Source of the DNA: Eledone cirrhosa
Taxonomy: Eukaryota
DNA: 64,000 bases
Direction: 5' to 3'
Assembly (NCBI GenBank): GCA_964016885.1
Contig: OZ024743.1
Span: 94,054,001-94,118,000, forward strand
In this document: one piece after another, positions 27,449-64,000 of the stretch
Position numbering within the stretch: position 1 is the stretch's first letter
Layout of the letters: every line of letters starts with the position of its first letter
Notes under the pieces: model-generated
What the model was told of the DNA's origin: nothing
The model's input: the letters and a program-made list of their open reading frames with translations, nothing else
The model's database searches: none
Made by a program: the position numbers and the translations under genes

Positions 27449-27475
27449 TTGTATTTGTTTATATTTTATCATATA

Positions 27476-31920: not shown

Positions 31921-31939
31921 TGAGATTATATATATATAT

Positions 31940-34336: not shown

Positions 34337-34738
34337 CATCTTGAACTTCAACTATTTCAGCAGGTTCTGTCATGACTTCTGGATTTAGATCTTCTCGGAA
34401 ATGTGATGACCAGCCTGAAGCCACATCTAAGCTGTTGCCTAAATTCAGACTATGATTACCAGGTGAGTTAGACAGCTCTAGAGTCTTTGGTCGTTGATTA
34501 ATTTTCTGATGAGTAGTCACAGATTTGTTTTGTGGTTGAGGAATAGAATCAGAATTAAGACCCATTTGCAGAGGAACATTACTGTTTGATGATAAGGATG
34601 TGTCATTGTCTTTAGTGCTGTTAGGTATATCTTTGTCTGATTTATGTAAGAGATTATCAGGAGTCAATGAGGGATTATTTATGGGGTCAGATACAGAATT
34701 GGACTTCTCTTTGGTGTTTTTCCTTGAAATGTTCTTGA
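34337..34738 (-). CDS. PLEKHM1: PLEKHM1-like exon 8 (Ser/Asn-rich linker)
   Basis: taacag|TCAAG...GATG|gtaagt; 402 nt, phase 1->1. Open frame including GNSLDVASGWSS. Confidence 0.85.
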
Positions 34739-35461
34739 CTGTTAAAAAAGAAAAAAATATTAAAAAAAAAATTAATGTGTATTCAGTTTTTTGTATATCT
34801 TGAACATGAAGAAACATCATCATTGTTTTTATGTCAACCATACCATGCTAGCATGGGTTGGACAGGTCCTTTTGAAGCAATATGTTTTACAGCTTGATGC
34901 TCATCCTGACACCAACCCTTTTAGTCACTTCTTACGACACACAAGAATACGGTGTACCTATTCTAAACCAGATCAGAAAAACAACCTTTTCCTGACCATA
35001 TTTATAATGAAATACACACTATTTTAATTAATTAAGAATTTGGAAGGATTTATTAAGCTTACTAATTATTTCATTACTAAGATAGAAACTTGACATTTAA
35101 ATTGAATTAAAACGAATTTGAACTCAGAACAAACACTGAGGCATTTAAAACCTAACATCTTGTAATGATTTAGAAGAAAATCTCTAAAAAGAGGTTTCTT
35201 AATTCAAATGTTTATAGTATCTTTATTAGCGGAAAGATTGTTGTGAAAAGTAAACTAAAGTAAGGAAGTGAAGAATTGTTTTATACTTTTTAAAAATGTG
35301 GTTTCATGCAGTATATGATATTAAGAGCTAATCCGATATCCACACAACACTGCCAATTTGCCTCACAGAACATAAAATATATTTTAGAAGAAAATTGTAT
35401 TGATGTGGGACGTCTTGAAGAGGTGGGTGGGTGGGTAGGGGGGAATAAAAATACCATTTAC

Positions 35462-35770
35462 CTTCGACTGTACTACTAGCTGATGGCTTGTCATCTGTTT
35501 TAGGATCTGAAGGCAACTTCTTAGAGACAATAACATCTGTATCTGCAAAATCTTTACTAGGAGATGTTGCTACAGAAACATCAACAGATTCTACCACCTT
35601 TCCATGAGTAACTGCAACGGGTGGAGGTCGAGCATTTCCAATCTCTTCAATACTGATGCCATCCGTTAAACCTGTTGCCCCTTCCACGCCGGCAAGCAAT
35701 AAGGGTATGTTCATCCAACTGTTCAAAACACTTGAGTTATATGGAAGTTCAAACTGGAAAGCTGTGATAC
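35462..35770 (-). CDS. PLEKHM1: PLEKHM1-like exon 7 (end of RUN domain plus linker)
   Basis: ctgcag|GTATC...GAAG|gtaaat; 309 nt, phase 1->1. GITAFQFELPYNSSVLNSWMNIPLLLAGV matches PLEKHM1 GL.SLSFELSYKSAILNEW...PL.LSG. Confidence 0.95.
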
Positions 35771-36174
35771 CTGCAGAAAAAACAAACACTATAAATAGTC
35801 AAAGTCCCCTTTAACTCTAAATATCCTGTACCACATGAAGATGCATTAGCAAAACATCCTTAAACAGTACAAATCAACACTGACTGTATCACATAAAAAA
35901 TTCAAGATATACATTTGTGTATTGCAAATTTTCAGAACAATATGTTCTCTAGTAAAGAGACTATAAACGTTTGAATTAACAAACCACATGAAATCACATT
36001 AGCAAGATATTATTGAAAAGTACAAAATAACACTATGGCTACATCACATTAAAGTCTTTACTCTAATACTGCAAATTTTGACAACGATCTATTCACTTAT
36101 AAAGATATTACAAACATTTTTAGATATCTTTAGTTAAATCATTATAGGAACTATAATATTCTATATACAGCGAC

Positions 36175-36390
36175 TATCATCATTTAATGTCTATTTTCCA
36201 CATTAGCATGGGTTAGACGGGTTGCCCCATTTCAGGCAAATCGAGTCAGATAACCATGTCTTGCTCATACAGAATTGTCTCTGGCTAGATTTCTATGGTT
36301 GAATGCCTTTCCTAACGCCAACTACATTTACAGTGTGTGCTAGGTGCTTCTTTGTCATGACACCTACATGACCACTTTACAGTGTGGACT
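36175..36390 (-). mobile_element. RTE 3'UTR fragment
   Basis: ATCATCATTTAATGTC tail and GAATGCCTTTCCTAACGCCAAC motif. Confidence 0.75.
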
Positions 36391-36652
36391 GGGGACTGGG
36401 GCAGGGGAGAAGAATGGTGTGATCAGGATGTGAGTGTGGTGTGGAAGGGAGTGGGGAGAGACTGTATTCTAAAAGTGTGAAACTTGGAAACTCAATTTCA
36501 TCATCACTATCTGTATCATATTTATATCTGCTTTTCCCTACTGTCATGGGTTGGATGGGACTTTTTGAGACAGTATTTTATGGCATGATCCCTTCCTGAA
36601 ATCAACCCATTTAATTACTTCTACAGGACGAGAAGGAAGAAAACTTATTTAC

Positions 36653-36723
36653 CTTGGACATAGGATTTCAAGATCCCAGGTTGTTCCAAATCTCGCAGAT
36701 ATGATAGTTGGTGATAATATGAA
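36653..36723 (-). CDS. PLEKHM1: PLEKHM1-like exon 6 (RUN domain)
   Basis: aaaag|T...CAAG|gtaaat; 71 nt, phase 2->1. (D)SYYHQLSYLRDLEQPGILKSYVQ matches the RUN motif YY...A.LRD.E. Confidence 0.92.
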
Positions 36724-37557
36724 CTTTTTAAAAAATTGAGGAAAAAGAACATTAGAAATGACATTAGAATACAATGAATTGTTTTAATAAAATAGCATGA
36801 ACACATATATTTAGTATTGACATTTGGTTTTAAGAGGGATTAATTAGAGTGCATAATTTTGTGTGGTGTGTCTCGATTGACTTTCTTAAAAACCAGAATT
36901 AGTCATTTAGTTTACATATTGAGACCACAACCTATCCTATTTATTTTATAATGCATGCAATTTGTAGTGATGTACTTTTTTGGTAATGTATGTTTTTTTA
37001 ATGTATAAAGAAAATTAATTGTCACAGGAATGCTACCACTTAAAATAAAATTTTGCCGGAGACAGGTTAACAAAATTTAAAATGTGTGTGGGTGGGGGGA
37101 CGATTATTCGAAAGCCAAAAGTAGATGGAAACTGTTTTGAAGCCCATCATGTAGACTATACCAGTAATTCAACTTTCCTTCTTCTGAGGTTGATAAAATA
37201 AAGAAAAAGTCAAGTACTGGGATAAATTTTATTGACTTTGCCGTTTCCATAAATTACTAGCCTTGTGCCTAAATTAGAATCAACTATTAACTGCTGAATC
37301 ACTGAAGACTGGGTCTTTGGTTTTACTTGTGTAGCATACCTGGCATTTGTTAATATCCCTTAAAGTCCTCACTTTCATTTAGTTGTAATCTCTTAAAAAA
37401 CAAAACAAAACAAAAAACAGTTGCGTTTCTTTAATTGTCAGCTATGATAGTTGACACCTCTCACTTGCAATTAGAGGAGTTTTCTACAGACAACAACCAC
37501 ATTTTAAGGCTCATGCAAGCTCCATGACAGGCTTATCATGAAATTTTCTTCACCCAC

Positions 37558-37870
37558 TTATTCCTGAGAGGGTCATGGGGTCAGAGTCCTCAAACACTCC
37601 TTCCAGTGGGTCCTGTCAGAAGCAACCATCTCCAACTGATCTGGCTGGATCCCTAAGCAAGAGCAGCCAAGCTCATGGATGTTATCCAACCATCTTACTC
37701 GGGGTCTCCTGCTAGTTGGTTTTGCCCATAAAATCTGACCAGCAATTCTTTCTTGAGACATTCTAACTCTATGCCCATAGTATCGGAGCTGTGATCTCTC
37801 AATTTAGAGAAGTAACAGCTTTACCTTAAGTGACTCTCTGATATCTGAGCTACGCACTCTATCATTATTT
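37558..37870 (-). mobile_element. Rex3/Expander-like RTE 3' fragment
   Basis: SQLRYYGH..RMSQERIAGQILWAKPTSRRPRVRWLDNIHELGCSCLGIQPDQLEMVASDRTHWKECLRTL resembles the Rex3 ORF C-terminus. Confidence 0.75.
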
Positions 37871-38187
37871 CAAAGACCCTTCACCCTTATCATGAAATAA
37901 TTTTTTTAAAGTAATGTTTTACATATTTAGACAGAAGCCCTTCATGATGCCAAACCATTTAGTTGTCTTTTACATGCAAGAATATGGTGTACCTATTCTA
38001 ACCCAGATCCTAACCCATGAGGAAATTAAACCTGTGTTATATTTCATACTCCTCATTGGGTCCTTTTTGAAGCAATGTTTTAAAACTAGATGCCAAACTA
38101 TTTATTTGCCATTTATGACATACAAGGATATCATGTAGCTATTCTTTAGGAATTTTCTATAGATTTAGAAATAAAAACAATTCTCAC

Positions 38188-38267
38188 TCTAGGGCTTGAA
38201 CATCTGCTATCATAGCATCAATGTAGCTGCCAAGAATCCCATCATTGAGGGCAAGTCTGATCCAAAC
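38188..38267 (-). CDS. PLEKHM1: PLEKHM1-like exon 5 (RUN domain)
   Basis: tgtag|GTT...CTAGA|gtgaga; 80 nt, phase 0->2. VWIRLALNDGILGSYIDAMIADVQAL matches the RUN motif AWLRLALNDG. Confidence 0.95.
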
Positions 38268-38638
38268 CTACAAAAATAAAGAGAGTTTGGTTAGATATTT
38301 TATTACACATAAATAAATGAGCAGACTATAAAAACCCCCTTAACTGGGGGTAGTGAATCTATGACATGCATGCCCAAGCTGGCATACAAAAACAGTTTAC
38401 TTTCAAACAAAGGGCTGAGAAGACTTGTCAGTTGTTTCAAGGACATGACACCCCCCCCCCCCCTAGTGTTGGTGCCATGATAAAATGTACCTAATACATT
38501 CTGTAAAGTGGTTGGTTTTTGGAAGAGTTTAGTAAGTTGAAAAAAATACTTGGGTTGATATGATCTACTTTAAGGTGATGTCCTAGCATGGCTGCAATCT
38601 AATGACTGAAACCAATAAAAGAGTAAGAGTCTACTTAC

Positions 38639-38734
38639 CCGACAATAGCCAACATCAGTTTTTATCTGTTTCAACTCTTGAATTTGAGCAATAACATTTT
38701 TGTGAGTGAATCGACTGACAAACTTCCAGAAGTT
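38639..38734 (-). CDS. PLEKHM1: PLEKHM1-like exon 4 (RUN domain)
   Basis: aaacag|AAC...CGG|gtaagt; 96 nt. NFWKFVSRFTHKNVIAQIQELKQIKTDVGYCR matches PLEKHM1 FW...THK.II......TDVGRCR. Confidence 0.95.
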
Positions 38735-39361
38735 CTGTTTGAAGAAAGATAGAAGTAGAAGAAATGGTGTGTAGGGTATATCATGATCATCATCATTTAA
38801 TCTATATTTTTCATGCTTGCATGGGTTAAACAAGCTGTCACATAGTGAGGTTAAACTGGTTGGGTGACCATGTCTTTCTCGTACGCAGAAATAACAATAC
38901 CATTTTTAACACTTTTGTTACCATATTTCCAATGAAAGACATTAACCCATTATTATTATAGAAGGTTTTTAGGTAAATATAAACACTTAACTCTTTCATG
39001 ATAGCATTTCTAATGAAATACACTATTTTAATTAATTAATGAAGAATTTCGAAACATTTTCTAAAATTATTAATAATTTCATTTGTAAGATAGTAAATTA
39101 ATGTAAGGTTCTTTTATAAAATTATGTTGCAAGATTTTAATATAAACTGGAAACCTCTAAAATGGGTGATTTTATTTCATAGAACCAGAGCTAGTTTTGG
39201 CTGGATTGGTAACTAAAGGGTTAAAATCACAAAATATAGCTGCCACAACACAAATAACTATAATAAAAGCTGATAATTATAAATAATAGTTAAATATATT
39301 GAGTAAAGCATTTTTGGTGATGAAAAAAGAGGGCAAATGAATAAAAATGGGATTTACTCAC

Positions 39362-39406
39362 AAGGGTTGTAACTTGGCCTGAAGTTTGCTGCATAAACAT
39401 CTTCAA
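39362..39406 (-). CDS. PLEKHM1: PLEKHM1-like exon 3 (45-nt exon)
   Basis: ttccag|TTGAAG...ACCCTT|gtgagt; phase 0->0. LKMFMQQTSGQVTTL. Strong splice sites, frame-preserving. Confidence 0.72.
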
Positions 39407-39639
39407 CTGGAAATAAAATAAAGACACTTAAATATCTCCATATTTCTGAACCTGGAGTTCAATCTGTTAGAAATAGCAAACTAATGTCCCCCTCAATTCA
39501 CTGTTCAATGATCAACCACTTTACTAAGTGTGTGTTCAAATTTTAATACAGCTAATATGATCATGAAACCAAGTGATTGAAATTGGGTTCCTCCAAAGAG
39601 TCTTTGGGGTAATGTTATTTGATAGAATATGTAGCTCGG

Positions 39640-39960
39640 AGGTCAGAGAGTGACTCCAGGTAGAGCTGCTACTTCTTCAAATTAAGAGATCACAGCTCTG
39701 ATACTATGGGTATGTGGTTAGAATGTCTCAGGAAAAAATTACTGGACAGATTTTACGGGCAAAACCAACTGGCAGGAGATCCAGGGGTAGACTCCAAGCA
39801 AGATGGTTGGATAACATCCATGAGCTTGGCTGGTCACGCTTGGAGATCCAGCCAGATCAATAGGAGACAGTTGCTTCTGACAGGGCCCACTGGAAGGAGT
39901 GTTTGAGGACTCTGCCTCCCCCCGACACTATCAGGAACAAGTGGCCAAAGAAGAAGAACA
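39640..39960 (+). mobile_element. Rex3/Expander-like RTE 3' fragment (inverted relative to 37558-37870)
   Basis: Colinear reverse-complement match to 37558-37850. Confidence 0.78.
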
Positions 39961-40018
39961 GTAAAGGATGAAGGACCAGAAGAACTTTCCCAAATAATAA
40001 ATATGAAGGATATTTTAC

Positions 40019-40097
40019 CTTGTGTGCTACAGGTTCTTTAAGCCCATGAAGGAATATAGCTTCAAGAATGTCACAAAGTCGGTTGGACAGTTCATTA
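40019..40097 (-). CDS. PLEKHM1: PLEKHM1-like exon 2 (RUN domain)
   Basis: tgtag|T...CACAAG|gtaaaa; 79 nt, phase 2->0. SNELSNRLCDILEAIFLHGLKEPVAHK contains the RUN block LC..LE.IF.HGL. Confidence 0.92.
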
Positions 40098-40189
40098 CTA
40101 CAATAAAAGGAATAAAATAATAAATAGCCCTGAAAGAAATATTTGTAGCATAGTTTTTCATTTAGAAACTGGTTGTATTGCATGTACGT

Positions 40190-41346: not shown

Positions 41347-41889
41347 CTAAATAGAAACAAACAAACAAAAATCTGAAAACTATACAAGGTAAACATTATT
41401 TAACACTGATGTAAATTATTAAAAGTTGTGTGAAGACCATAACTCTCTCCCTTGTGCTAGTACCAGGATAAATTATACTCAGTATACCATGTAAAGTGGT
41501 TGGTGTTAGAAAGAGCCTCCAGTTGTAGAGACCATGCTAAACAAAGGGGTAAGACAACTCATAAATTGTGTTAAAGACATGACAACCGATGCAATGCTTG
41601 CATTACACAATCCTAAAGTGCATATACTTACGGCTGGGCTTGTGAAACCAATCACCCGAAAAAACTCCATTTAAATGAACTTACACCATAAATTCCTTCG
41701 AATGGAGCCAGCTCAACCCACTCTGGGTGAATGCCGCCACAAGTAGAAGTGCAAGTAAGTAACCTCCCTACTCATGGGTGCATTTTGTAATACCAATTAC
41801 ATTACATGGTGTACTGGGTGTAATTTATCACGGCAGTAGGACTAGAAAGGTTGCCATGTATTTGACACAACCGAAGAGTCCTCTCACGT

Positions 41890-44800
41890 TACAATGACAT
41901 CACAACACTATCAACTGTCACATTACAATAACAGACATCACAAAACTATATACAGTCACATTACAATGACAGACATCACAACACGATATACACTGACATC
42001 ACAGCAATATATAGTCACATTACAATGATATCACAACACTATCAACAGTCACATGACAGTGGCACACATCACAACACTATCAACAGTCACATTACATTAC
42101 AGTAACACACATCACAACACTATCAACAGTCACATAACAGTGGCACACATCACAACACAGTGGCACACATCACAACACTATCAATAGTCACATGACAGTG
42201 GCACACATCACAACACTATCAAGAGTCACATGACAGTAACACAAATCACAACACTATAAACAGTCACATGACAGTAACACATATCACAACACTATCAACA
42301 GTCACATGACAGTGGCACAGATAACAACACTATCAACAGTCACATTACTGTGGCACACATCACAACACTATCAACAGTCACATGACAGTGGCACACTCAC
42401 AACACTATCAACAGTCACATGACAGTGGCACACATCACAACACTATCAACAGTCACATTACTGTGGGACACATCACAACACTATCAACAGTCACATGACA
42501 GTGGCACACTCACAACACTATCAACAGTCACATGGCAGTAACACACATCACAACACTATCAACAGTCACATTACAGTGGCACACATCACAACACTATCAA
42601 CAGTCATATTACTGTGGGACACATCACAACACTATAAACAGTCACATGACAGTGGCACACTCACAACACTATCAACAGTCACGATACAGTGGCACACATC
42701 ACAACACTATCAACAGTCACATGACAGTGGCACAAATCACAACACAATCAACAGTCACATTACTGTGGGACACATCACAACACTATCAACAGTCACATGA
42801 CACTGGCACACATCACAACACTATCAACAGTCACATGACAGTAACACACATCACAACACTATCATCAATCACATTACAGTAGCACACATCACAACACTAT
42901 CAAGTCACATGACAGTGGCACACATCACAACACTATCAGCAGTCACATGACAGTGGTACACTCACAAACACTATCAACAGTCACATGACAGTAACACACA
43001 TCACAACACTATCAACAGTCACTTGACAGTGGAACACATCACAACACTATCAACAGTCACATGACAGTGGCACACATCACAACACTATCAACAGTCACAT
43101 GACAGTGGCACACATCACAACACTATCAACAGTCACATGACAGTGGCACACATCACAACACTATCAACAGTCACATGACAGTGGCACATATCACAACACC
43201 ATCAACAGTCACATGACAGTGGCACACATCACAACACTATCAACAGTCACATGACAGTGGCATACATCACAAAACTATCAACAGTCACATGACAGTGGCA
43301 CACATCACAACACTATCAACAGTCACACAACAGTGGCACACATCACAACACTATCAACAGTCACATGACAGTAACACACATTACAACACTATCAACAGTC
43401 ACATGACAGTAACACACATCACAACACTATCAACCATCTCATGACATTAACACACATCACAACACTATCAACAGTCACATGACAGTGGCACACATCACAA
43501 CACTATCAACAGTCACATGACAGTGGCACATATGACAACACTATCAACCGTCTCATGACATTAACACACATCACAACACTATCAACAGTCACATGACAGT
43601 GGCACATATCACAACACTATCAACAGTCACATTACAGTGGTACACTCACAACACTATCAACAGTCACATTACAGTGGTACACATCACAACACTATCAACA
43701 GTCACATAACAGTGGCACACATCACAACACTATCAACAGTCACAATACAGTGGCACACATCACAACACTATCAATAGTCACATGACAGTGGCACACATCA
43801 CAACACTATCAAGAGTCACATGACAGTAACACAAATCACAACACTATAAACAGTCACATGACAGTAACACATATCACAACACTATCAACAGTCACATGAC
43901 AGTGGCACAGATAACAACACTATCAACAGTCACATTACTGTGGCACACATCACAACACTATCAACAGTCACATGACAGTGGCACACTCACAACACTATCA
44001 ACAGTCACATGACAGTGGCACACATCACAACACTATCAACAGTCACATTACTGTGGGACACATCACAACACTATCAACAGTCACATGACAGTGGCACACT
44101 CACAACACTATCAACAGTCACATGGCAGTAACACACATCACAACACTATCAACAGTCACATTACAGTGGCACACATCACAACACTATCAACAGTCACATT
44201 ACTGTGGGACACATCACAACACTATAAACAGTCACATGACAGTGGCACACTCACAACACTATCAACAGTCACGATACAGTGGCACACATCACAACACTAT
44301 CAACAGTCACATGACAGTGGCACAAATCACAACACAATCAACAGTCACATTACTGTGGGACACATCACAACACTATCAACAGTCACATGACACTGGCACA
44401 CATCACAACACTATCAACAGTCACATGACAGTAACACACATCACAACACTATCATCAATCACATTACAGTAGCACACATCACAACACTATCAAGTCACAT
44501 GACAGTGGCACACATCACAACACTATCAGCAGTCACATGACAGTGGTACACTCACAAACACTATCAACAGTCACATGACAGTAACACACATCACAACACT
44601 ATCAACAGTCACTTGACAGTGGAACACATCACAACACTATCAACAGTCACATGACAGTGGCACACATCACAACACTATCAACAGTCACATGACAGTGGCA
44701 CACATCACAACACTATCAACAGTCACATGACAGTGGCACACATCACAACACTATCAACAGTCACATGACAGTGGCACATATCACAACACCATCAACAGTC

Positions 44801-47800
44801 ACATGACAGTGGCACACATCACAACACTATCAACAGTCACATGACAGTGGCATACATCACAAAACTATCAACAGTCACATGACAGTGGCACACATCACAA
44901 CACTATCAACAGTCACACAACAGTGGCACACATCACAACACTATCAACAGTCACATGACAGTAACACACATTACAACACTATCAACAGTCACATGACAGT
45001 AACACACATCACAACACTATCAACCATCTCATGACATTAACACACATCACAACACTATCAACAGTCACATGACAGTGGCACACATCACAACACTATCAAC
45101 AGTCACATGACAGTGGCACATATGACAACACTATCAACCGTCTCATGACATTAACACACATCACAACACTATCAACAGTCACATGACAGTGGCACATATC
45201 ACAACACTATCAACAGTCACATTACAGTGGTACACTCACAACACTATCAACAGTCACATTACAGTGGTACACATCACAACACTATCAACAGTCACATGAC
45301 AGTGGCACACTCACAACACTATAAGCAGTCACATGACAGTGGCACACATCACAACACTATCAACAGTCACATGACAGTGGTACATATCACAACACTATCA
45401 ACAGTCACATTACAGTGGCACACATCACAACACTATCAACAGTCACATTACTGTGGCACACATCACAACACTATCAACAGTCACATGACAGTCACACACA
45501 TCACAACACTATCAACTGTCACATTACAGTGGCACATATCACAACACTATCAACAGTCACATGACAGTGGCACACGCACAACACTATCAAACAGTCACAT
45601 GACAGTAACACACATCACAACACTATCAACAGTCACATTACAGTGGCACACATCACAACACTAGCAACAGTCACATGACAGTGGCACATTTCAAAACACT
45701 ATCAACCGTCTCATGACATTAACACACATCACAACACTATCAACAGTCACATGACAGTGGTACATATCACAACACTATCAACAGTCACATTACAGTGGCA
45801 CACATCACAACACTATCAACAGTCACATGACAGTGGCACACATCACAACACTATCAACAGTCACATTACTGTGGCACACATCACAACACTATCAACAGTC
45901 ACATGACAGTGGCACATTTCAAAACACTATCAACAGTCACATGACAGTAACACACATCACAACACTATCAACAGTGACATGACAGTGGCACACATCACAA
46001 CACTATTAACAGTCACATGACAGTGGGACATATCACAACACCATCAACAGTCACATTACAGTGGCACACGCACAACACTATCAACAGTCACATGACAGTA
46101 ACACACATCACAACACTATCAACAGTCACATGACAGTGGCACACATCACAACATTATCAACAGTCACATTACAGTGGCACACATCACAACACTATCATCA
46201 GTCACATGACAGTGGCACACATCACAACACTATCAACAGTCACATGACAGTAACACACATCACAACACTATCAACAGTCACATGACAGTGGCACACATCA
46301 CAACACTATCAACAGTCACATTACAGTGGCACACGCACAACACTATCAACAGTCACATGACAGTAACACACATCACAACACTATCAACAGTCACATTACA
46401 GTGGCACATATCACAACACTATCAACAGTCACATTACAGTGGCACACATCACAACACTATCAACAGTCACATGACAGTGGTACATGCACAACACTATCAA
46501 CAGCCACATGACAGTAACACACATCACAACACTATCAACAGTCACATGACAGTGGCACACATCACAAGACTATCAACAGTGACATGACACTGGCACACAT
46601 CACAACACTATCAACAGTCCCACAACAGTGGCACACATCACAACACTATCAACAGTCACATGACAGTAACACACATCACAACACTATCAACAGTCACATT
46701 ACTGTGGCACATATCACAACACTATCAACAGTCACTTTACAGTGACACACGTCACAACACTATCAACAGTCACATGACAGTGGCACATATCACAAGACTA
46801 TCAACAGTCACATGACAGTGACATACATCACAACACTATCAACAGTCCCACAACAGTGGCACACATCACAACACTATCAACAGTCACATGACAGTGGCAC
46901 ATATCACAACACTATCAACAGTCACATTACTGTGGCACATATCACAACACTATCAACAGTCACTTTACAGTGACACACATCACAACACTATCAACAGTCA
47001 CATGACAGTGGCACATATCACAACACTATCAACAGTCACATGACAGTGGCACACATCACAACACTATCAACAGTCACATTACAGTGGCACACATCACAAC
47101 ACTATCAACAGTCACATTACTGTGGCACACATCACAACACTATCAACAGTCACATGACAGTAACACACATCACAACACTATCAACAGTCACATTACTGTG
47201 GCACATATCACAACACTATCAACAGTCACTTTACAGTGGCACACATCACAACACTATCAACAGTCACATTACAGTGGCACACATCACAACACTATCAACA
47301 GTCACATTACTGTGGCACACATCACAACACTATCAACAGTCACATGACAGTAACACACATCACAACACTATCAACAGTCACATGACAGTAACACACATCA
47401 CAACACTATCAACAGACACATGACAGTGGCACACATCACAACACTATCAACAGTCCCACAACAGTGGCACACATCACAACACTATCAACAGTCACATAAC
47501 AGTAACACACATCACAAAACTATCAACAGTCACATGACAGTAACACACATCAAAACACTATCAACAGTCACATGACAGTGGCACATATCACAACACTATC
47601 AACCGTCTCATGACATTAACACACATCACAACACTATCAACAATCACATGACAGTGGCACATATCACAACACTATCAACAGTCACATTACAATAACACAC
47701 ATCACAACACTATCAACAGTCACATGACAGTGGCACACATCACAACACTATCAACAGTCACATTACAGTGGCACACATCACAACACTATCAACAGTCACA

Positions 47801-50800
47801 TGACAGTGGCACACGCACAACACTATCAACAGTCACATGACAGTAACACACATCACAACACTATCAACAGTCACATTACAGTGGCACATATCACAACACT
47901 ATCAACAGTCACATGACAGTGGGACACATCACAACACTATCAACAGTCACATGACAGTCGCACACTCACAACACTATCAAACAGTCACATGACAGTAACA
48001 CACATCACAACACTATCAACAGTCACATGACAGTCGCACACTCACAACACTATCAAACAGTCACATGACAGTAACACACATCACAACACTATCAACAGTC
48101 ACATGACAGTCGCACACTCACAACACTATCAAACAGTCACATGACAGTAACACACATCACAACACTATCAACAGTCACATGACAGTGGCACATATCACAA
48201 CACTATCAACAGTCACATGACAGTAACACACATAACAACACTATCAACAGTCACATGACAGTGGCACACTCACAACACTATAAGCAGTCACATGACAGTG
48301 GCACACATCACAACACTATCAACAGTCACATGACAGTGGTACATATCATAACACTATCAACAGTCACTTTACAGTGACACACATCACAACACTATCAACA
48401 GTCACATTACAGTGGCACACATCACAACTCTATCAACAGTCACATGACAGTGGCACACATCACAACACTATCAACAGTCACATGACAGTGGGACACATCA
48501 CAACACTATCAACAGTCACATGACAGTGGGACACATCACAACACTATCAACAGTCACATTACTGTGGCAAACATCACAACACTATCAACAGTCACGTGAC
48601 AGTGGCACACATCACAACACTATCAAGAGTGACATGACAGTAACACACATCCCAACACTATCAACAGTCACATTACAGTGGCACACATAACAAAACTATC
48701 AACAGTCACATGACAGTGGCACACATCACGACACTATCAACAGTCACATGACAGTAACACACATCACAACACTATCAACAGTCACATGACAGTAACACAC
48801 ATCACAACACTATCAACAGTCACATTACTGTGGCACACATCACAACACTATCAACAGTCACATTACTGTGGCACACATCACAACACTATCAACAGTCACG
48901 TGACAGTGGCACACATCACAACACTATCAATAGTCACATGACCGTAACACACATCCCAACACTATCAACAGTCACATGACAGTGGCACACATAACACTAT
49001 CAACAGTCACATGACAGTAACACACATCACAACACTATCAACAGTCACATGACAGTAACACACATCACAACACTATCAACAGTCACATGACAGTGTAACA
49101 CATCACAACACTATCAACAGTCCCACAACAGTGGCACACATCACAACACTATCAACAGTCACATGACAGTAACACACATCACAACACTATCAACAGTCAC
49201 ATGACAGTAACACACATCACAACACTATCAACAGTCACTTGACAGTGGAACACATCACAACACTATCAACAGTCACATGACAGTGGCACACATCACAACA
49301 CTATCAACAGTCACATGACAGTGGCACACATCACAACACTATCAACAGTCACATGACAGTGGCACACATCACAACACTATCAACAGTCACATGACAGTGG
49401 CACATATCACAACACCATCAACAGTCACATGACAGTGGCACACATCACAACACTATCAACAGTCACATGACAGTGGCATACATCACAAAACTATCAACAG
49501 TCACATGACAGTGGCACACATCACAACACTATCAACAGTCACACAACAGTGGCACACATCACAACACTATCAACAGTCACATGACAGTAACACACATTAC
49601 AACACTATCAACAGTCACATGACAGTAACACACATCACAACACTATCAACCATCTCATGACATTAACACACATCACAACACTATCAACAGTCACATGACA
49701 GTGGCACACATCACAACACTATCAACAGTCACATGACAGTGGCACATATGACAACACTATCAACCGTCTCATGACATTAACACACATCACAACACTATCA
49801 ACAGTCACATGACAGTGGCACATATCACAACACTATCAACAGTCACATTACAGTGGTACACTCACAACACTATCAACAGTCACATTACAGTGGTACACAT
49901 CACAACACTATCAACAGTCACAATACAGTGGCACACATCACAACACTATCAATAGTCACATGACAGTGGCACACATCACAACACTATCAAGAGTCACATG
50001 ACAGTAACACAAATCACAACACTATAAACAGTCACATGACAGTAACACATATCACAACACTATCAACAGTCACATGACAGTGGCACAGATAACAACACTA
50101 TCAACAGTCACATTACTGTGGCACACATCACAACACTATCAACAGTCACATGACAGTGGCACACTCACAACACTATCAACAGTCACATGACAGTGGCACA
50201 CATCACAACACTATCAACAGTCACATTACTGTGGGACACATCACAACACTATCAACAGTCACATGACAGTGGCACACTCACAACACTATCAACAGTCACA
50301 TGGCAGTAACACACATCACAACACTATCAACAGTCACATTACAGTGGCACACATCACAACACTATCAACAGTCACATTACTGTGGGACACATCACAACAC
50401 TATAAACAGTCACATGACAGTGGCACACTCACAACACTATCAACAGTCACGATACAGTGGCACACATCACAACACTATCAACAGTCACATGACAGTGGCA
50501 CAAATCACAACACAATCAACAGTCACATTACTGTGGGACACATCACAACACTATCAACAGTCACATGACACTGGCACACATCACAACACTATCAACAGTC
50601 ACATGACAGTAACACACATCACAACACTATCATCAATCACATTACAGTAGCACACATCACAACACTATCAAGTCACATGACAGTGGCACACATCACAACA
50701 CTATCAGCAGTCACATGACAGTGGTACACTCACAAACACTATCAACAGTCACATGACAGTAACACACATCACAACACTATCAACAGTCACTTGACAGTGG

Positions 50801-53800
50801 AACACATCACAACACTATCAACAGTCACATGACAGTGGCACACATCACAACACTATCAACAGTCACATGACAGTGGCACACATCACAACACTATCAACAG
50901 TCACATGACAGTGGCACACATCACAACACTATCAACAGTCACATGACAGTGGCACATATCACAACACCATCAACAGTCACATGACAGTGGCACACATCAC
51001 AACACTATCAACAGTCACATGACAGTGGCATACATCACAAAACTATCAACAGTCACATGACAGTGGCACACATCACAACACTATCAACAGTCACACAACA
51101 GTGGCACACATCACAACACTATCAACAGTCACATGCCAGTAACACACATTACAACACTATCAACAGTCACATGACAGTAACACACATCACAACACTATCA
51201 ACCATCTCATGACATTAACACACATCACAACACTATCAACAGTCACATGACAGTGGCACACATCACAACACTATCAACAGTCACATGACAGTGGCACATA
51301 TGACAACACTATCAACCGTCTCATGACATTAACACACATCACAACACTATCAACAGTCACATGACAGTGGCACATATCACAACACTATCAACAGTCACAT
51401 TACAGTGGTACACTCACAACACTATCAACAGTCACATTACAGTGGTACACATCACAACACTATCAACAGTCACATGACAGTGGCACACTCACAACACTAT
51501 AAGCAGTCACATGACAGTGGCACACATCACAACACTATCAACAGTCACATGACAGTGGTACATATCACAACACTATCAACAGTCACATTACAGTGGCACA
51601 CATCACAACACTATCAACAGTCACATTACTGTGGCACACATCACAACACTATCAACAGTCACATGACAGTAACACACATCACAACACTATCAACTGTCAC
51701 ATTACAGTGGCACATATCACAACACTATCAACAGTCACATGACAGTGGCACACGCACAACACTATCAAACAGTCACATGACAGTAACACACATCACAACA
51801 CTATCAACAGTCACATTACAGTGGCACACATCACAACACTAGCAACAGTCACATGACAGTGGCACATTTCAAAACACTATCAACCGTCTCATGACATTAA
51901 CACACATCACAACACTATCAACAGTCACATGACAGTGGTACATATCACAACACTATCAACAGTCACATTACAGTGGCACACATCACAACACTATCAACAG
52001 TCACATGACAGTGGCACACATCACAACACTATCAACAGTCACATTACTGTGGCACACATCACAACACTATCAACAGTCACATGACAGTGGCACATTTCAA
52101 AACACTATCAACAGTCACATGACAGTAACACACATCACAACACTATCAACAGTGACATGACAGTGGCACACATCACAACACTATTAACAGTCACATGACA
52201 GTGGGACATATCACAACACCATCAACAGTCACATTACAGTGGCACACGCACAACACTATCAACAGTCACATGACAGTAACACACATCACAACACTATCAA
52301 CAGTCACATGACAGTGGCACACATCACAACATTATCAACAGTCACATTACAGTGGCACACATCACAACACTATCATCAGTCACATGACAGTGGCACACAT
52401 CACAACACTATCAACAGTCACATGACAGTAACACACATCACAACACTATCAACAGTCACATGACAGTGGCACACATCACAACACTATCAACAGTCACATT
52501 ACAGTGGCACACGCACAACACTATCAACAGTCACATGACAGTAACACACATCACAACACTATCAACAGTCACATTACAGTGGCACATATCACAACACTAT
52601 CAACAGTCACATTACAGTGGCACACATCACAACACTATCAACAGTCACATGACAGTGGTACATGCACAACACTATCAACAGCCACATGACAGTAACACAC
52701 ATCACAACACTATCAACAGTCACATGACAGTGGCACACATCACAAGACTATCAACAGTGACATGACACTGGCACACATCACAACACTATCAACAGTCCCA
52801 CAACAGTGGCACACATCACAACACTATCAACAGTCACATGACAGTAACACACATCACAACACTATCAACAGTCACATTACTGTGGCACATATCACAACAC
52901 TATCAACAGTCACTTTACAGTGACACACGTCACAACACTATCAACAGTCACATGACAGTGGCACATATCACAAGACTATCAACAGTCACATGACACTGAC
53001 ATACATCACAACACTATCAACAGTCCCACAACAGTGGCACACATCACAACACTATCAACAGTCACATGACAGTGGCACATATCACAACACTATCAACAGT
53101 CACATTACTGTGGCACATATCACAACACTATCAACAGTCACTTTACAGTGACACACATCACAACACTATCAACAGTCACATGACAGTGGCACATATCACA
53201 ACACTATCAACAGTCACATGACAGTGGCACACATCACAACACTATCAACAGTCACATTACAGTGGCACACATCACAACACTATCAACAGTCACATTACTG
53301 TGGCACACATCACAACACTATCAACAGTCACATGACAGTAACACACATCACAACACTATCAACAGTCACATTACTGTGGCACATATCACAACACTATCAA
53401 CAGTCACTTTACAGTGGCACACATCACAACACTATCAACAGTCACATTACAGTGGCACACATCACAACACTATCAACAGTCACATTACTGTGGCACACAT
53501 CACAACACTATCAACAGTCACATGACAGTAACACACATCACAACACTATCAACAGTCACATGACAGTAACACACATCACAACACTATCAACAGACACATG
53601 ACAGTGGCACACATCACAACACTATCAACAGTCCCACAACAGTGGCACACATCACAACACTATCAACAGTCACATAACAGTAACACACATCACAAAACTA
53701 TCAACAGTCACATGACAGTAACACACATCAAAACACTATCAACAGTCACATGACAGTGGCACATATCACAACACTATCAACCGTCTCATGACATTAACAC

Positions 53801-56800
53801 ACATCACAACACTATCAACAATCACATGACAGTGGCACATATCACAACACTATCAACAGTCACATTACAATAACACACATCACAACACTATCAACTGTCA
53901 CATGACAGTGGGACACATCACAACACTATCAACAGTCACATGACAGTGGCACACATCACAACACTATCAACAGTCACATTACAGTGGCACACATCACAAC
54001 ACTATCAACAGTCACATGACAGTGGCACACGCACAACACTATCAACAGTCACATGACAGTAACACACATCACAACACTATCAACAGTCACATTACAGTGG
54101 CACATATCACAACACTATCAACAGTCACATGACAGTGGGACACATCACAACACTATCAACAGTCACATGACAGTCGCACACTCACAACACTATCAAACAG
54201 TCACATGACAGTAACACACATCACAACACTATCAACAGTCACATGACAGTCGCACACTCACAACACTATCAAACAGTCACATGACAGTAACACACATCAC
54301 AACACTATCAACAGTCACATGACAGTCGCACACTCACAACACTATCAAACAGTCACATGACAGTAACACACATCACAACACTATCAACAGTCACATGACA
54401 GTGGCACATATCACAACACTATCAACAGTCACATGACAGTAACACACATAACAACACTATCAACAGTCACATGACAGTGGCACACTCACAACACTATAAG
54501 CAGTCACATGACAGTGGCACACATCACAACACTATCAACAGTCACATGACAGTGGTACATATCATAACACTATCAACAGTCACTTTACAGTGACACACAT
54601 CACAACACTATCAACAGTCACATTACAGTGGCACACATCACAACTCTATCAACAGTCACATGACAGTGGCACACATCACAACACTATCAACAGTCACATG
54701 ACAGTGGGACACATCACAACACTATCAACAGTCACATGACAGTGGGACACATCACAACACTATCAACAGTCACATTACTGTGGCAAACATCACAACACTA
54801 TCAACAGTCACGTGACAGTGGCACACATCACAACACTATCAAGAGTGACATGACAGTAACACACATCCCAACACTATCAACAGTCACATTACAGTGGCAC
54901 ACATAACAAAACTATCAACAGTCACATGACAGTGGCACACATCACGACACTATCAACAGTCACATGACAGTAACACACATCACAACACTATCAACAGTCA
55001 CATGACAGTAACACACATCACAACACTATCAACAGTCACATTACTGTGGCACACATCACAACACTATCAACAGTCACATTACTGTGGCACACATCACAAC
55101 ACTATCAACAGTCACGTGACAGTGGCACACATCACAACACTATCAATAGTCACATGACCGTAACACACATCCCAACACTATCAACAGTCACATGACAGTG
55201 GCACACATAACACTATCAACAGTCACATGACAGTAACACACATCACAACACTATCAACAGTCACATGACAGTAACACACATCACAACACTATCAACAGTC
55301 ACATGACAGTGTAACACATCACAACACTATCAACAGTCCCACAACAGTGGCACACATCACAACACTATCAACAGTCACATGACAGTAACACACATCACAA
55401 CACTATCAACAGTCACATGACAGTAACACACATCACAACACTATCAACAGTCACATGACAGTGGCACATATCACAACACTATCAACCGTCACATGACAGT
55501 AACACACATCACAACACTATCAACAGTCACATGACAGTGTAACACATCACAACACTATCAACAGTCCCACAACAGTGGCACACATCACAACACTATCAAC
55601 AGTCACATGACAGTAACACACATCACAACACTATCAACAGTCACATAACATTAACACACATCACAACACTATCAACAGTCACATGACAGTGGCACACACC
55701 ACAACACTATCAACAGTCACATGACAGTGGCACATATCACAACACTATCAACCGTCTCATGACATTAACACACATCACAACACTATCAACAGTCACATGA
55801 CAGTGGTACACTCACAACACTATCAACAGTCATATGACAGTAACACACATCACAACACTATCAACTGTCACATTACAGTGGCACATATCACAACACTATC
55901 AACAGTCACATGACAGTAACACACATCACAACACTATCAACAGTCACATGACAGTGGCACACTCACAACACTATAAGCAGTCACATGACAGTGGCACACA
56001 TCACAACACTATCAACAGTCACATTACAGTGGTACACTCACAACACTATCAACAGTCATATGACAGTAACACACATCACAACACTATCAACTGTCACATT
56101 ACAGTGGCACATATCACAACACTATCAACAGTCACATGACAGTAACACACATCACAACACTATCAACAGTCACATGACAGTGGCACACTCACAACACTAT
56201 AAGCAGTCACATGACAGTGGCACACATCACAACACTATCAACAGTCACATGACAGTGGCACACATCACAACACTATCAACAGTCACATTACAGTGGCACA
56301 CTCACAACACTATCAACAGTCACATGACAGTCGCACACTCACAACACTATCAACAGTCACCTGACAGTAACACACATCACAACACTATCAACAGTCACAT
56401 GACAGTGGCACATATCACAACACTATCAACAGTCACATGACAGTGGCACACGCACAACACTATCAACAGTCACATGACAGTAACACATCACAACACTATC
56501 AACAGTCACATTACAGTGGCACACTCACAACACTATCAACAGTCACATGACAGTCGCACACTCACAACACTATCAACAGTCACCTGACAGTAACACACAT
56601 CACAACACTATCAACAGTCACATTACAGTGGCACACATCACAACTCTATCAACAGTCACATGACAGTGGGCACAGATCACAACACTATCAAGTCACATGA
56701 CAGTCGCACACTCGCAACACTATCAACAGTCACATGACAGTAACACACATCACAACACTACCAACAGTCACATGACAGTAACACACATCACAACACTATC

Positions 56801-59800
56801 AACAGTCACATGACAGTGGCACACATCACAACACTATCAACAGTCACATTACAGTGGCACACATCACAACACTATCAACAGTCACATGACAGTGGCACAC
56901 GCACAACACTATCAACAGTCACATGACAGTAACACACATCACAACACTATCAACAGTCACATTACAGTGGCACATATCACAACACTATCAACAGTCACAT
57001 GACAGTGGGACACATCACAACACTATCAACAGTCACATGACAGTCGCACACTCACAACACTATCAGTCACATGACAGTAACACACATCACAACACTATCA
57101 ACAGTCACATGACAGTCGCACACTCACAACACTATCAAACAGTCACATGACAGTAACACACATCACAACACTATCAACAGTCACATGACAGTCGCACACT
57201 CACAACACTATCAAACAGTCACATGACAGTAACACACATCACAACACTATCAACAGTCACATGACAGTGGCACATATCACAACACTATCAACAGTCACAT
57301 GACAGTAACACACATCACAACACTATCAACAGTCACATGACAGTGGCACACTCACAACACTATAAGCAGTCACATGACAGTGGCACACATCACAACACTA
57401 TCAACAGTCACATGACAGTGGTACATATCATAACACTATCAACAGTCACTTTACAGTGACACACATCACAACACTATCAACAGTCACATTACAGTGGCAC
57501 ACATCACAACTCTATCAACAGTCACATGACAGTGGCACACATCACAACACTATCAACAGTCACATGACAGTGGGACACATCACAACACTATCAACAGTCA
57601 CATGACAGTGGGACACATCACAACACTATCAACAGTCACATTACTGTGGCACACATCACAACACTATCAACAGTCACGTGACAGTGGCACACATCACAAC
57701 ACTATCAAGAGTGACATGACAGTAACACACATCCCAACACTATCAACAGTCACATTACAGTGGCACACATAACAAAACTATCAACAGTCACATGACAGTG
57801 GAACACATCACGACACTATCAACAGTCACATGACAGTAACACACATCACAACACTATCAACAGTCACATGACAGTAACACACATCACAACACTATCAACA
57901 GTCACATGACAGTAACACACATCACAACACTATCAACAGTCACATTACTGTGGCACACATCACAACACTATCAACAGTCACGTGACAGTGGCACACATCA
58001 CAACACTATCAATAGTCACATGACCGTAACACACATCCCAACACTATCAACAGTCACATGACAGTGGCACACATCACAACACTATCAACAGTCACATGAC
58101 AGTAACACACATCACAACACTATCAACAGTCACATGACAGTAACACACATCACAACACTATCAACAGTCACATGACAGTGTAACACATCGCAACACTATC
58201 AACAGTCCCACAACAGTGGCACACATCACAACACTATCAACAGTCACATGACAGTAACACACATCACAACACTATCAACAGTCACATGACAGTAACACAC
58301 ATCACAACACTATCAACAGTCACATGACAGTGGCACATATCACAACACTATCAACCGTCACATGACAGTAACACACATCACAACACTATCAACAGTCACA
58401 TGACAGTGTAACATCACAACACTATCAACAGTCCCACAACAGTGGCACACATCACAACACTATCAACAGTCACATGACAGTAACACACATCACAACACTA
58501 TCAACAGTCACATGACATTAACACACATCACAACACTATCAACAGTCACATGACAGTGGCACACACCACAACACTATCAACAGTCACATGACAGTGGCAC
58601 ATATCACAACACTATCAACCGTCTCATGACATTAACACACATCACAACACTATCAACAGTCACATGACAGTGGTACACTCACAACACTATCAACAGTCAT
58701 ATGACAGCAACACACATCACAACACTATCAACTGTCACATTACAGTGGCACATATCACAACACTATCAACAGTCACATGACAGTAACACACATCACAACA
58801 CTATCAACAGTCACATGACAGTGGTACACTCACAACACTATCAACAGTCATATGACAGTAACACACATCACAACACTATCAACTGTCACATTACAGTGGC
58901 ACATATCACAACACTATCAACAGTCACATGACAGTAACACACATCACAACACTATCAACAGTCACATGACAGTGGCACACTCACAACACTATAAGCAGTC
59001 ACATGACAGAGGCACACATCACAACACTATCAACAGTCACATGACAGTGGCACACATCACAACACTATCAACAGTCACATTACAGTGGCACACTCACAAC
59101 ACTATCAACAGTCACATGACAGTCGCACACTCACAACACTATCAACAGTCACCTGACAGTAACACACATCACAACACTATCAACAGTCACATGACAGTGG
59201 CACATATCACAACACTATCAACAGTCACATGACAGTGGCACACGCACAACACTATCAACAGTCACATGACAGTAACACACATCACAACACTATCAACAGT
59301 CACATTACAGTGGCACACTCACAACACTATCAACAGTCACCTGACAGTAACACACATCACAACACTATCAACAGTCACATTACAGTGGCACACATCACAA
59401 CTCTATCAACAGTCACATGACAGTGGCACAGATCACAACACTATCAACAGTCACATGACAGTCGCACACTCACAACACTATCAACAGTCACATGACAGTA
59501 ACACACATCACAACACTACCAACAGTCACATGACAATAACACACATCACAACACTATCAACAGTCACATGACAGTGACACACATCACAACACTATCAACA
59601 GTCACATTACAGTGGCACACTCACAACACTATCAACAGGCACATGACAGTGGCACACATCACAACACTATCAACAGTCACATGACAGTAACACACATCAC
59701 AACACAATCAACAGTCACATGAGAGTGGCACATATCACAACACTATCAACAGTCACATGACAGTGGCACACATTACAACACTATCAACAGTAACATTACA

Positions 59801-62800
59801 GTGGCACAAATCACAACACTATCAACACTCACATGACAGTGGCACACATCACAACACTATCAACAGTCACATGACAGTGGCACACATCACAACACTAGCA
59901 ACAGTCACATGACAGTGGCACACATCACAACACTATCAACAGTCACATTACAGTGGCACACATCACAGCACCATCAACAGTCACATGACAGTAACACACA
60001 TCACAACACTAGCAACAGTCACATGACAGTGGCACACATCACAACACTATCAACAGTCACATGACAGTGGCACACATCACAACACTATCAACAGTCACAT
60101 GACAGTGGGACACATCACAACACTATCAACAGTCACATGACAGTCGCACACTCACAACACTATCAACAGTCACCTGACAGTAACACACATCACAACACTA
60201 TCAACAGTCACATGACAGTGGCACATATCACAACACTATCAACAGTCACATGACAGTGACACACTCACAACACTATCAACAGTCACATGACAGTGGCACA
60301 CATCACAACACTATCAACAGTCACATGACAGTGGGAGACATCACAACACTATCAATAGTCACATGACAGTCGCACACTCACAACACTATCAACAGTCACA
60401 TGACAGTAACACACATCACAACACTATCAACAGTCACATGACAGTAACACACATCACAATACTATCAACAGTCACATGACAGTGGCACACATCACAACAC
60501 TATAAACTGTCACATGACACTAGCACATATCACAACACTATCAACAGTCACATTACAGTTGCACACTCACAACACTATCAACAGTCACATGACAGTGGCA
60601 CACATCACAACACTATCAACAGTCACATGACAGTAACACACATCACAACACTATCAACAGTCACATTACAGTGGCACACATCACAACTCTATCAACAGTC
60701 ACATGACAGTGGCACACATCACAACACTATCAACAGTCACATGACAGTAACACACATCACAACACAATCAACAGTCACATGACAGTGGCACATATCACAA
60801 CACTATCAACAGTCACATTACAGTGGCACACTCACAACACTATCAACAGGCACATGACAGTGGCACACATCACAACACTATCAACAGTCACATGACAGTA
60901 ACACACATCACAACACAATCAACAGTCACATGACAGTGGCACACATCACAACACTATCAACAGTCACATGACAGTGGCACACATCACAACACTATCAACA
61001 GTCACATGACAGTGGGACACATCACAACACTATCAACAGTCACATGACAGTCGCACACTCACAACACTATCAACAGTCACCTGACAGTAACACACATCAC
61101 AACACTATCAACAGTCACATGACAGTGGCACATATCACAACACTATCAACAGTCACATTACAGTGGCACACATCACAACTCTATCAACAGTCACATGACA
61201 GTGGCACATATCACAACACTATCAACAGTCACATGACAGTGGGACACATCACAACACTATCAATAGTCACATGACAGTCGCACACTCACAACACTATCAA
61301 CAGTCACATGACAGTAACACACATCACAACACTATCAACAGTCACATGACAGTAACACACATCACAATACTATCAACAGTCACATGACAGTGGCACACAT
61401 CACAACACTATAAACTGTCACATGACACTAGCACATATCACAACACTATCAACAGTCACATTACAGTTGCACACTCACAACACTATCAACAGTCACATGA
61501 CAGTGGCACACGCACAACACTATCAACAGTCACATGACAGTAACACACATCACAACACTATCAACAGTCACATTACAGTGGCACATATCACAACACTATC
61601 AACAGTCACATGACAGTGGGACACATCACAACACTATCAACAGTCACATGACAGTCGCACACTCACAACACTATCAGTCACATGACAGTAACACACATCA
61701 CAACACTATCAACAGTCACATGACAGTCGCACACTCACAACACTATCAAACAGTCACATGACAGTAACACACATCACAACACTATCAACAGTCACATGAC
61801 AGTCGCACACTCACAACACTATCAAACAGTCACATGACAGTAACACACATCACAACACTATCAACAGTCACATGACAGTGGCACATATCACAACACTATC
61901 AACAGTCACATGACAGTAACACACATCACAACACTATCAACAGTCACATGACAGTGGCACACTCACAACACTATAAGCAGTCACATGACAGTGGCACACA
62001 TCACAACACTATCAACAGTCACATGACAGTGGTACATATCATAACACTATCAACAGTCACTTTACAGTGACACACATCACAACACTATCAACAGTCACAT
62101 TACAGTGGCACACATCACAACTCTATCAACAGTCACATGACAGTGGCACACATCACAACACTATCAACAGTCACATGACAGTGGGACACATCACAACACT
62201 ATCAACAGTCACATGACAGTGGGACACATCACAACACTATCAACAGTCACATTACTGTGGCACACATCACAACACTATCAACAGTCACGTGACAGTGGCA
62301 CACATCACAACACTATCAAGAGTGACATGACAGTAACACACATCCCAACACTATCAACAGTCACATTACAGTGGCACACATAACAAAACTATCAACAGTC
62401 ACATGACAGTGGAACACATCACGACACTATCAACAGTCACATGACAGTAACACACATCACAACACTATCAACAGTCACATGACAGTAACACACATCACAA
62501 CACTATCAACAGTCACATGACAGTAACACACATCACAACACTATCAACAGTCACATTACTGTGGCACACATCACAACACTATCAACAGTCACGTGACAGT
62601 GGCACACATCACAACACTATCAATAGTCACATGACCGTAACACACATCCCAACACTATCAACAGTCACATGACAGTGGCACACATCACAACACTATCAAC
62701 AGTCACATGACAGTAACACACATCACAACACTATCAACAGTCACATGACAGTAACACACATCACAACACTATCAACAGTCACATGACAGTGTAACACATC

Positions 62801-64000
62801 GCAACACTATCAACAGTCCCACAACAGTGGCACACATCACGACACTATCAACAGTCACATGACAGTAACACACATCACAACACTATCAACAGTCACATGA
62901 CAGTAACACACATCACAACACTATCAACAGTCACATGACAGTGGCACATATCACAACACTATCAACCGTCACATGACAGTAACACACATCACAACACTAT
63001 CAACAGTCACATGACAGTGTAACATCACAACACTATCAACAGTCCCACAACAGTGGCACACATCACAACACTATCAACAGTCACATGACAGTAACACACA
63101 TCACAACACTATCAACAGTCACATGACATTAACACACATCACAACACTATCAACAGTCACATGACAGTGGCACACACCACAACACTATCAACAGTCACAT
63201 GACAGTGGCACATATCACAACACTATCAACCGTCTCATGACATTAACACACATCACAACACTATCAACAGTCACATGACAGTGGTACACTCACAACACTA
63301 TCAACAGTCATATGACAGCAACACACATCACAACACTATCAACTGTCACATTACAGTGGCACATATCACAACACTATCAACAGTCACATGACAGTAACAC
63401 ACATCACAACACTATCAACAGTCACATGACAGTGGTACACTCACAACACCATCAACAGTCATATGACAGTAACACACATCACAACACTATCAACTGTCAC
63501 ATTACAGTGGCACATATCACAACACTATCAACAGTCACATGACAGTAACACACATCACAACACTATCAACAGTCACATGACAGTGGCACACTCACAACAC
63601 TATAAGCAGTCACATGACAGAGGCACACATCACAACACTATCAACAGTCACATGACAGTGGCACACATCACAACACTATCAACAGTCACATTACAGTGGC
63701 ACACTCACAACACTATCAACAGTCACATGACAGTCGCACACTCACAACACTATCAACAGTCACCTGACAGTAACACACATCACAACACTATCAACAGTCA
63801 CATGACAGTGGCACATATCACAACACTATCAACAGTCACATGACAGTGGCACACGCACAACACTATCAACAGTCACATGACAGTAACACACATCACAACA
63901 CTATCAACAGTCACATTACAGTGGCACACTCACAACACTATCAACAGTCACCTGACAGTAACACACATCACAACACTATCAACAGTCACATTACAGTGGC
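41890..64000. repeat. 38-bp satellite array (>22 kb, roughly 580 monomers, runs off the window)
   Basis: Consensus ACAGTGGCACACATCACAACACTATCAACAGTCACATG, period 38 (for example 43081 to 43119), with 37/39-bp variants. Degenerate shorter units at 41890-42050. Confidence 0.98.

Follow-up and report, generated by a model that had tools for sequence, protein, structure and literature searches.

We analysed a 64,000-nucleotide window of the Eledone cirrhosa genome (contig OZ024743.1, positions 94,054,001 to 94,118,000), in which a long tandem array of a 38-bp unit lies in the first coding intron of a minus-strand gene, here called PLEKHM1, and in which most of the units carry a motif of the type bound by Mitf-family factors. 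Positions are counted from the first letter of the window, and the same numbering is carried on for features beyond its end (window-equivalent). A first-pass annotation, made from the letters alone, had suggested that the array could be a satellite-built enhancer of a lysosomal gene or a sink for Mitf-type factors, or else a chance match, and this reading is weighed below against the genome-wide background of the motif and of its arrays.

The 38-bp Array and Its Internal History

Tandem Repeats Finder (TRF) reported 577 copies of period 38 with 90% matches in the window, reaching its end, and after adding 100 kb of downstream DNA the full array was found to run from 41,896 to 77,122 (41,896..64,000 in the window; no strand is assigned to the array or to its parts), that is, 35.2 kb or ~930 head-to-tail copies, 13 kb of them past the window. 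An 18-mer taken from the monomer had 625 matches in the 3.0-Gb genome, and all 625 lie inside this array, which rules out a multi-locus satellite DNA family and, together with a unit length between 10 and 100 bp, identifies the repeat as a locus-specific minisatellite (variable number tandem repeat, VNTR). A coding repeat was also rejected, as stop-free frames reach no more than 169 aa on the plus and 46 aa on the gene strand. The part within 41,896–64,000, when read on the transcribed (gene) strand, is U/G-rich throughout, with 797 UUGAUAG, 109 GUGAGU, and no AAUAAA, and this composition is a possible load on the splicing of intron 1.

Runs of identical monomers recur at lags of 1590, 3329, 4611, and 6216 bp, the longest comprising 69 monomers that start at 58,868 and appear again at 63,479 (lag 4611 bp; 58,868..64,000); such nested identical blocks would be the pattern expected from unequal exchange. 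These perfectly identical runs might also suggest that a real array was inflated in length and in its long identical blocks by misassembly. We give this a very remote chance, given that the array is free of N letters, that short-read contigs of one sample bridge both of its junctions, and that the summed contig depth of the repeat, which is not a copy number, is several hundred times that of the unique flank. In the sequencing-run index, only this one sample contained the 38-bp repeat, the other runs being RAD-seq and one mapped run without depth on the repeat, and no other species was found with it in this index, which detects near-identical sequence only.

The Host Gene

Exon sequence in the window matches octopod proteins with RUN and Rubicon-homology (RH) domains at 77–82% identity, and these homologues map collinearly over the minus strand of the locus. 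The RUN domain of the Octopus homologue is nearest to human PLEKHM1 (E 1.4e-32 vs. 3.7e-8 for PLEKHM2), and its C-terminal RH domain (PF13901, E 4e-68) is matched by a window exon too. Vertebrate PLEKHM1 has PH domains between RUN and RH; no PH domain match was obtained on the Octopus homologue, which NCBI labels “sorting nexin-29-like”. We regard the host as the putative PLEKHM1 orthologue, as the first-pass annotation had also named it, on the grounds of the RUN domain being nearest to PLEKHM1 and of the RH domain, and not of a tree against Rubicon.

The exons were placed by homology and splice signals, no RNA run being listed in the index, and distances are counted from the ATG. Coding exon 1 (MSFSNQ, with a GT donor) lies at 84,345–84,327 and coding exon 2, where the RUN region starts, at 41,346–41,244, 550 bp from the array edge, both on the minus strand. 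A candidate ATG exon at 78.6 kb (window-equivalent) was dropped, given that the homologues point to the exon at 84,345. The first coding intron thus runs from 84,326 to 41,347 (minus strand, ~42,980 bp; 41,347..64,000 in the window), and the array fills 82% of it, starting 7.2 kb from the ATG, so that the location in the 5′ part of the gene proposed earlier holds.

The Mitf-Type Motif Within the Array

The sites recognised by MITF have a CACGTG or CATGTG core next to a T on the 5′ side and/or an A on the 3′ side (PMC6672050), and the Drosophila Mitf motif, TCACATGA (dCLEAR), is enriched near the transcription start and in the first introns of V-ATPase genes and is conserved across species (PMC10452791). 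The array contains precisely this 8-mer, with a CATGTG core flanked by T and A, mostly within the 10-mer GTCACATGAC, of which 366 copies were counted in the window and 609 over the full length of the array. The claim that most monomers carry the motif is borne out: 365 of the 576 parsed window monomers (63%) have the 10-mer, and among the 924 monomers parsed over the whole array 608 have GTCACATGAC, 162 have GTCACATTAC, in which the E-box is broken, and eight have the perfect CLEAR palindrome GTCACGTGAC. Sites of the form TCACRTGA number 628.

The eight palindromes were recovered exactly where the first-pass annotation had placed them, and the 13 kb of array beyond the window contain none. They come in four pairs: 48,591 and 48,895, eight monomers apart (48,591..48,904); 54,807 and 55,111, a copy of the first pair in a block duplicated at the 6216-bp lag (54,807..55,120); 57,673 and 57,977, whose flanking monomer variants are near-identical (57,673..57,986); and 62,284 and 62,588 (62,284..62,597), 4611 bp from the third pair, which is the lag of the longest duplicated block. 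All eight are one single-change variant in two recurring neighbourhoods, each present four times, and therefore they represent one or two mutations and not eight sites. CLEAR elements have been described 200 bp from the transcription start (PMC8714965), whereas the array lies 7.2–42 kb from the ATG, inside an intron.

The motif has not been preserved more strictly than its neighbouring bases, which, by a criterion that the first-pass annotation had set itself, leans against function: among the 38 windows of the monomer, the 8-mer ranks 21st (67% intact, median 69%) and the 10-mer 18th, every motif column contains derived alleles, and a T stands at the last E-box base in 195 of the 924 monomers. 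At the degenerate proximal edge of the array (41,896..42,160), the first ten units parsed, which are also the most diverged, include four with GTCACATTAC and two with GTCACATGAC, a weak hint that the founder monomer lacked the E-box. As for the chance of such a motif arising, shuffles of the window yield a mean of 0.86 occurrences, far below the observed count; we rejected this null because tandem copies are not independent and one monomer amounts to one draw. Of 200,000 dinucleotide shuffles of the 38-bp monomer, 0.6% contain the 10-mer and 2.6% the 8-mer.

The Genome-Wide Background of the Motif and of Its Arrays

In the whole genome, the 10-mer occurs 8873 times vs. 10,522 for its reversed control, that is, without enrichment, and the array holds 6.9% of the exact 10-mers. 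Outside tandem repeats, the 8-mer was counted 60 times in 955 kb, or roughly 190,000 times when extrapolated to the genome, so by this rough measure the array holds ~0.3% of the genomic 8-mers. Neither share is the large fraction of a factor's sites that a decoy array should hold. Tandem triples are likewise fewer than in the reversed control for the 8-mer (3956 vs. 19,226) and for the 10-mer in three pattern sets (223 vs. 1045, 73 vs. 98, and 111 vs. 1029).

Tandem triples of the 10-mer lie at no fewer than 41 loci, the 38-bp array included; the enumeration of 8-mer arrays covers the first 21 Mb of C1, and the counts of 10-mer arrays are lower bounds for periods of 34–44 and above 63. The first-pass annotation had named scatter over unrelated loci as evidence against its own reading, and the outcome leans against function: arrays of the same motif, made of unrelated monomers, occur at at least 40 other loci, most of which lie in genes that are not lysosomal or show no gene. 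The 38-bp satellite itself keeps to one locus. Several of the unrelated monomers resemble, by eye, variants of an abundant 48-bp dispersed repeat. Two of the other arrays exceed the 38-bp array in 8-mers (1194 and at least 1237 vs. 628). One motif-bearing monomer of 33 bp was seen at two loci, C2:189.415 Mb and C3:368.90 Mb, unlike the other arrays.

Private minisatellite arrays abound in the genome, many of them within genes: the 1.68 Mb of DNA examined, a sample biased to array-rich places, contains 163 arrays with a length of at least 500 bp, and further private arrays measure ~78, ≥60, ≥49, ≥31, and 16 kb. Of 27,000 shuffles of the units of 90 non-motif arrays, six contained the 10-mer and 88 the 8-mer; by extrapolation to the tens of thousands of arrays that the genome may contain, several to tens of 10-mer arrays would be expected by chance.

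An array of chance origin might nevertheless have an effect, if Mitf/USF-type dimers bound some of the 628 TCACRTGA sites and the array worked either as a cis element of PLEKHM1 that is tunable by its length or as a decoy at the locus. The motif fits both the specificity of MITF (PMC6672050) and dCLEAR (PMC10452791), the array begins 7.2 kb from the ATG, within the first coding intron, and it is poor in CpG (108 in 35 kb), the CATG-core sites having none to methylate. Furthermore, in yeast, repeated synthetic sites that act as decoys titrate an activator (PMC3322331), and the E-box of the human TYMS 28-bp VNTR changes transcription (PMC11155610). We nonetheless hold this to be unlikely, considering that ~0.3% of the genomic 8-mers is a small share, that dCLEAR sites lie within ~1.2 kb of the transcription start (PMC10452791) and the array starts 7.2 kb beyond the ATG, that CATGTG sites are a minority of the MITF sites found by chromatin immunoprecipitation (PMC6672050), and that a conventional single site with the M-box core already exists 113 bp upstream of the PLEKHM1 ATG, beyond the window.

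Hosts of the Other Motif Arrays

The host survey covered 33 other arrays, mostly with 20 kb on each side; two of them were 8-mer arrays, and the rest came from 31 of the 40 other loci with the 10-mer. Exon candidates were found by a script that misses short or masked exons, and were named via Pfam, PDB, or homology; some of the named hosts are the nearest gene within ~20 kb and not proven hosts, and several Pfam matches are below cut-off. On this basis, 17 hosts were named, 4–5 arrays have unnamed exon-like frames, and ~12 have no visible gene. The named hosts are ORP1/OSBPL1A, LAPTM4A, a TPR/RPAP3_C gene, dynein heavy chain, polo kinase, CASC1, a clathrin-propeller-like gene, an MABP-domain gene that we take to be DENND4-like, and TIR, Ig/FN3, RIMBP2-like, WD40, BEN, furin-like, multicopper oxidase, Smr, and C2H2 zinc-finger genes; the exon at C11:10.13 Mb gave generic WD40 leads only. 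The clathrin-propeller-like gene, at C6:1.57–1.60 Mb, resembles a divergent clathrin heavy-chain N-terminal propeller (PDB E 5e-6). By established knowledge, two of the 17 hosts, ORP1L and LAPTM4A, are lysosomal or late-endosomal, and the other 15 are non-lysosomal.

ORP1L, like PLEKHM1, is a Rab7 effector. An intron of its gene (OSBPL1A) contains a 44-bp array of at least 60 kb (C1:1,394,179–~1,455,000) with at least 1237 TCATGTGA, in which the 10-mer is a minority variant; the gene itself spans 676 kb (1.376–2.052 Mb), with gaps between matched exons of up to ~190 kb, and is therefore a large target. A 16-kb array of a 52-bp unit ends ~100 bp before the ORP1L ATG. The array richest in perfect CLEAR sites is a 51-bp one at C24:4,594,049–4,596,524, with 49 copies, 24 perfect palindromes, and 22 M-box variants, and no host gene was seen in the 90 kb examined around it. 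A single-locus array of 78 kb at C1:20,552,149–20,629,818 (62-bp unit, 96% matches, 1194 TCATGTGA) also showed no host gene in the flanks examined. Past it lie a 12-kb array of a 25-bp unit and then, over at least 49 kb, copies of a 45-bp unit that resembles a piece of a common dispersed repeat.

Motif-bearing minisatellites could instead build up preferentially in genes of the Mitf regulon, either seeded from Mitf sites or selected as amplified enhancers, with PLEKHM1, ORP1L, and LAPTM4A as members. The two largest 10-mer arrays among those listed do sit in two Rab7 effectors, LAPTM4A has a small one in intron 1, and two more hosts, the clathrin-propeller-like and the MABP-domain, presumably DENND4-like, genes, belong to membrane traffic. 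With the index locus counted, three lysosomal hosts out of 18 give P 0.005–0.17 at assumed base rates of 2–8%; with it excluded, two out of 17 give a binomial P of 0.045–0.40 at the same rates, which is not significant. The size of ORP1L as a target and the minority status of the 10-mer there, the absence of a host gene in the examined flanks of both the CLEAR-richest (24 palindromes) and the 78-kb 8-mer arrays, and, as a weak indication, the edge units of the 38-bp array, which tend to lack the E-box and so fit a site-less founder, all speak against preferential build-up, which we regard as quite improbable.

Further Features at the PLEKHM1 Locus

The remaining PLEKHM1 coding exons in the window lie on the minus strand within 1135..40,100 (RUN at 40.1–35.5 kb, linker at 34.7–14 kb, and RH at 7.1–1.1 kb), and the last two exons lie 1.6–2.9 kb before the window. 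Intron 1 also contains a second array at 78,942–80,193 (window-equivalent), made of 15 copies of an 84-bp unit with 96% matches and without the motif. In the PLEKHM1 introns, we recognised by eye a Tc1/mariner-like transposase remnant and several broken copies of RTE-type LINE reverse transcriptase (10,548–11,464, 15,884–19,954, and 32,444–33,200). Upstream of the gene, minus-strand exons at ~92.9–93.8 kb (window-equivalent) resemble those of a putative PRKRIP1 gene, and further beyond them follows an adh_short/HSD17B4-like gene.

Discussion

We consider it probable that the array is an ordinary, neutral, locus-specific minisatellite with a passenger Mitf-type motif. Slippage and unequal exchange would have amplified a 38-bp piece of local sequence to ~930 copies, the motif likely being carried along unselected; the array would be spliced out with the PLEKHM1 intron and would hardly alter PLEKHM1 output or Mitf dosage. 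That the motif came along by chance is likely, since the genome is full of one-off arrays and tandem copies of the same motif exist at so many other loci. The enhancer or sink role first proposed is mostly unsupported, given the middling rank of the motif within the monomer, the descent of all CLEAR sites from one variant, the lack of 10-mer enrichment over the control, and the other motif loci.

Several results weigh against the neutral interpretation. The motif identity proposed at the outset stands, since TCACATGA matches in full the Drosophila Mitf site, for which enrichment in first introns is described (PMC10452791), and the genome has a Mitf/TFE-family gene (PF15951 matches above cut-off at C1:147.9 Mb). 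A neutral origin does not prevent Mitf binding, and, judging from its sequence, the monomer could be bound by Mitf in vitro. Concerted evolution makes conservation within an array a weak test, and the 8-mer was the best-kept window in two of seven other arrays tested, these having been picked for the motif. Each control was a single reversed motif, open to inflation by abundant repeats, and in one set the 10-mer triples exceed it (443 vs. 303, with 268 of the 443 coming from the 38-bp array). Among the arrays listed, the 38-bp array is the largest in 10-mers and the ORP1L intron array the second largest (at least 316 10-mers), and intron 1 of LAPTM4A carries a short 36–40-bp array with seven GTCATGTGAC, interrupted by a dispersed repeat (C2:271,772,900–271,773,500). 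What chiefly speaks against a reading of pure chance is the pair of lysosomal hosts.

We suggest keeping in mind what each outcome would mean. If the array is a neutral minisatellite, the lesson is cautionary and descriptive: the genome carries many intragenic private arrays of 10–80 kb, any motif of 8–10 bp will be amplified hundreds of times somewhere, and therefore motif arrays beside a fitting gene need a genome-wide control. If, on the other hand, private giant minisatellites amplified Mitf sites in lysosomal and late-endosomal introns (PLEKHM1, ORP1L, LAPTM4A), forming copy-number-tuned enhancers or buffers for the lysosome regulon, which we find improbable, we would have a natural example in which tandem repeats build dose-tunable elements of the Mitf/TFEB lysosome programme. 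This second case is made testable by the list of at least 41 motif arrays, two of which have further lysosomal hosts.

Comparison with Known Systems

The Drosophila genes kl-3 and kl-5 reportedly have giant introns filled with satellite, and they resemble the PLEKHM1 intron in consisting mostly of tandem repeat; theirs are megabase introns of germline genes, whereas here the intron is 43 kb, the gene is of a housekeeping type, and the unit is 38 bp. Among the literature titles found, none dealt with this repeat, with cephalopod intronic minisatellites, with the abundance of private minisatellites in this genome, or with tandem arrays of MiT/TFE sites. Synthetic tetO decoy arrays in yeast (PMC3322331) likewise offer many contiguous, regularly spaced sites, but they are foreign to the genome that carries them, unlike the 38-bp array with its ~7% of the exact 10-mers and ~0.3% of the 8-mers.

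In the CLEAR network of TFEB and TFE3, for which 471 direct TFEB targets are described in HeLa cells, the same palindrome GTCACGTGAC is used and the host would likewise be a lysosomal-pathway gene (PMC8714965, PMC6672050); here, however, the palindrome is a single variant in eight of 924 monomers, 22–36 kb from the ATG instead of ~200 bp from the transcription start. With dCLEAR, the array shares the identical 8-mer, the first-intron position, and a Mitf gene in the genome, while dCLEARs are few, near the transcription start, and conserved across species (PMC10452791), as opposed to 628 sites in one young array. Finally, the human TYMS 28-bp VNTR with its USF-1 E-box (PMC11155610) has few copies, in contrast to ~930 over 35 kb of intron, and the effect of the E-box on transcription is described for TYMS; what both have in common is a short head-to-tail unit at one locus, in the 5′ part of a gene, whose E-box is lost in some copies by a point change.

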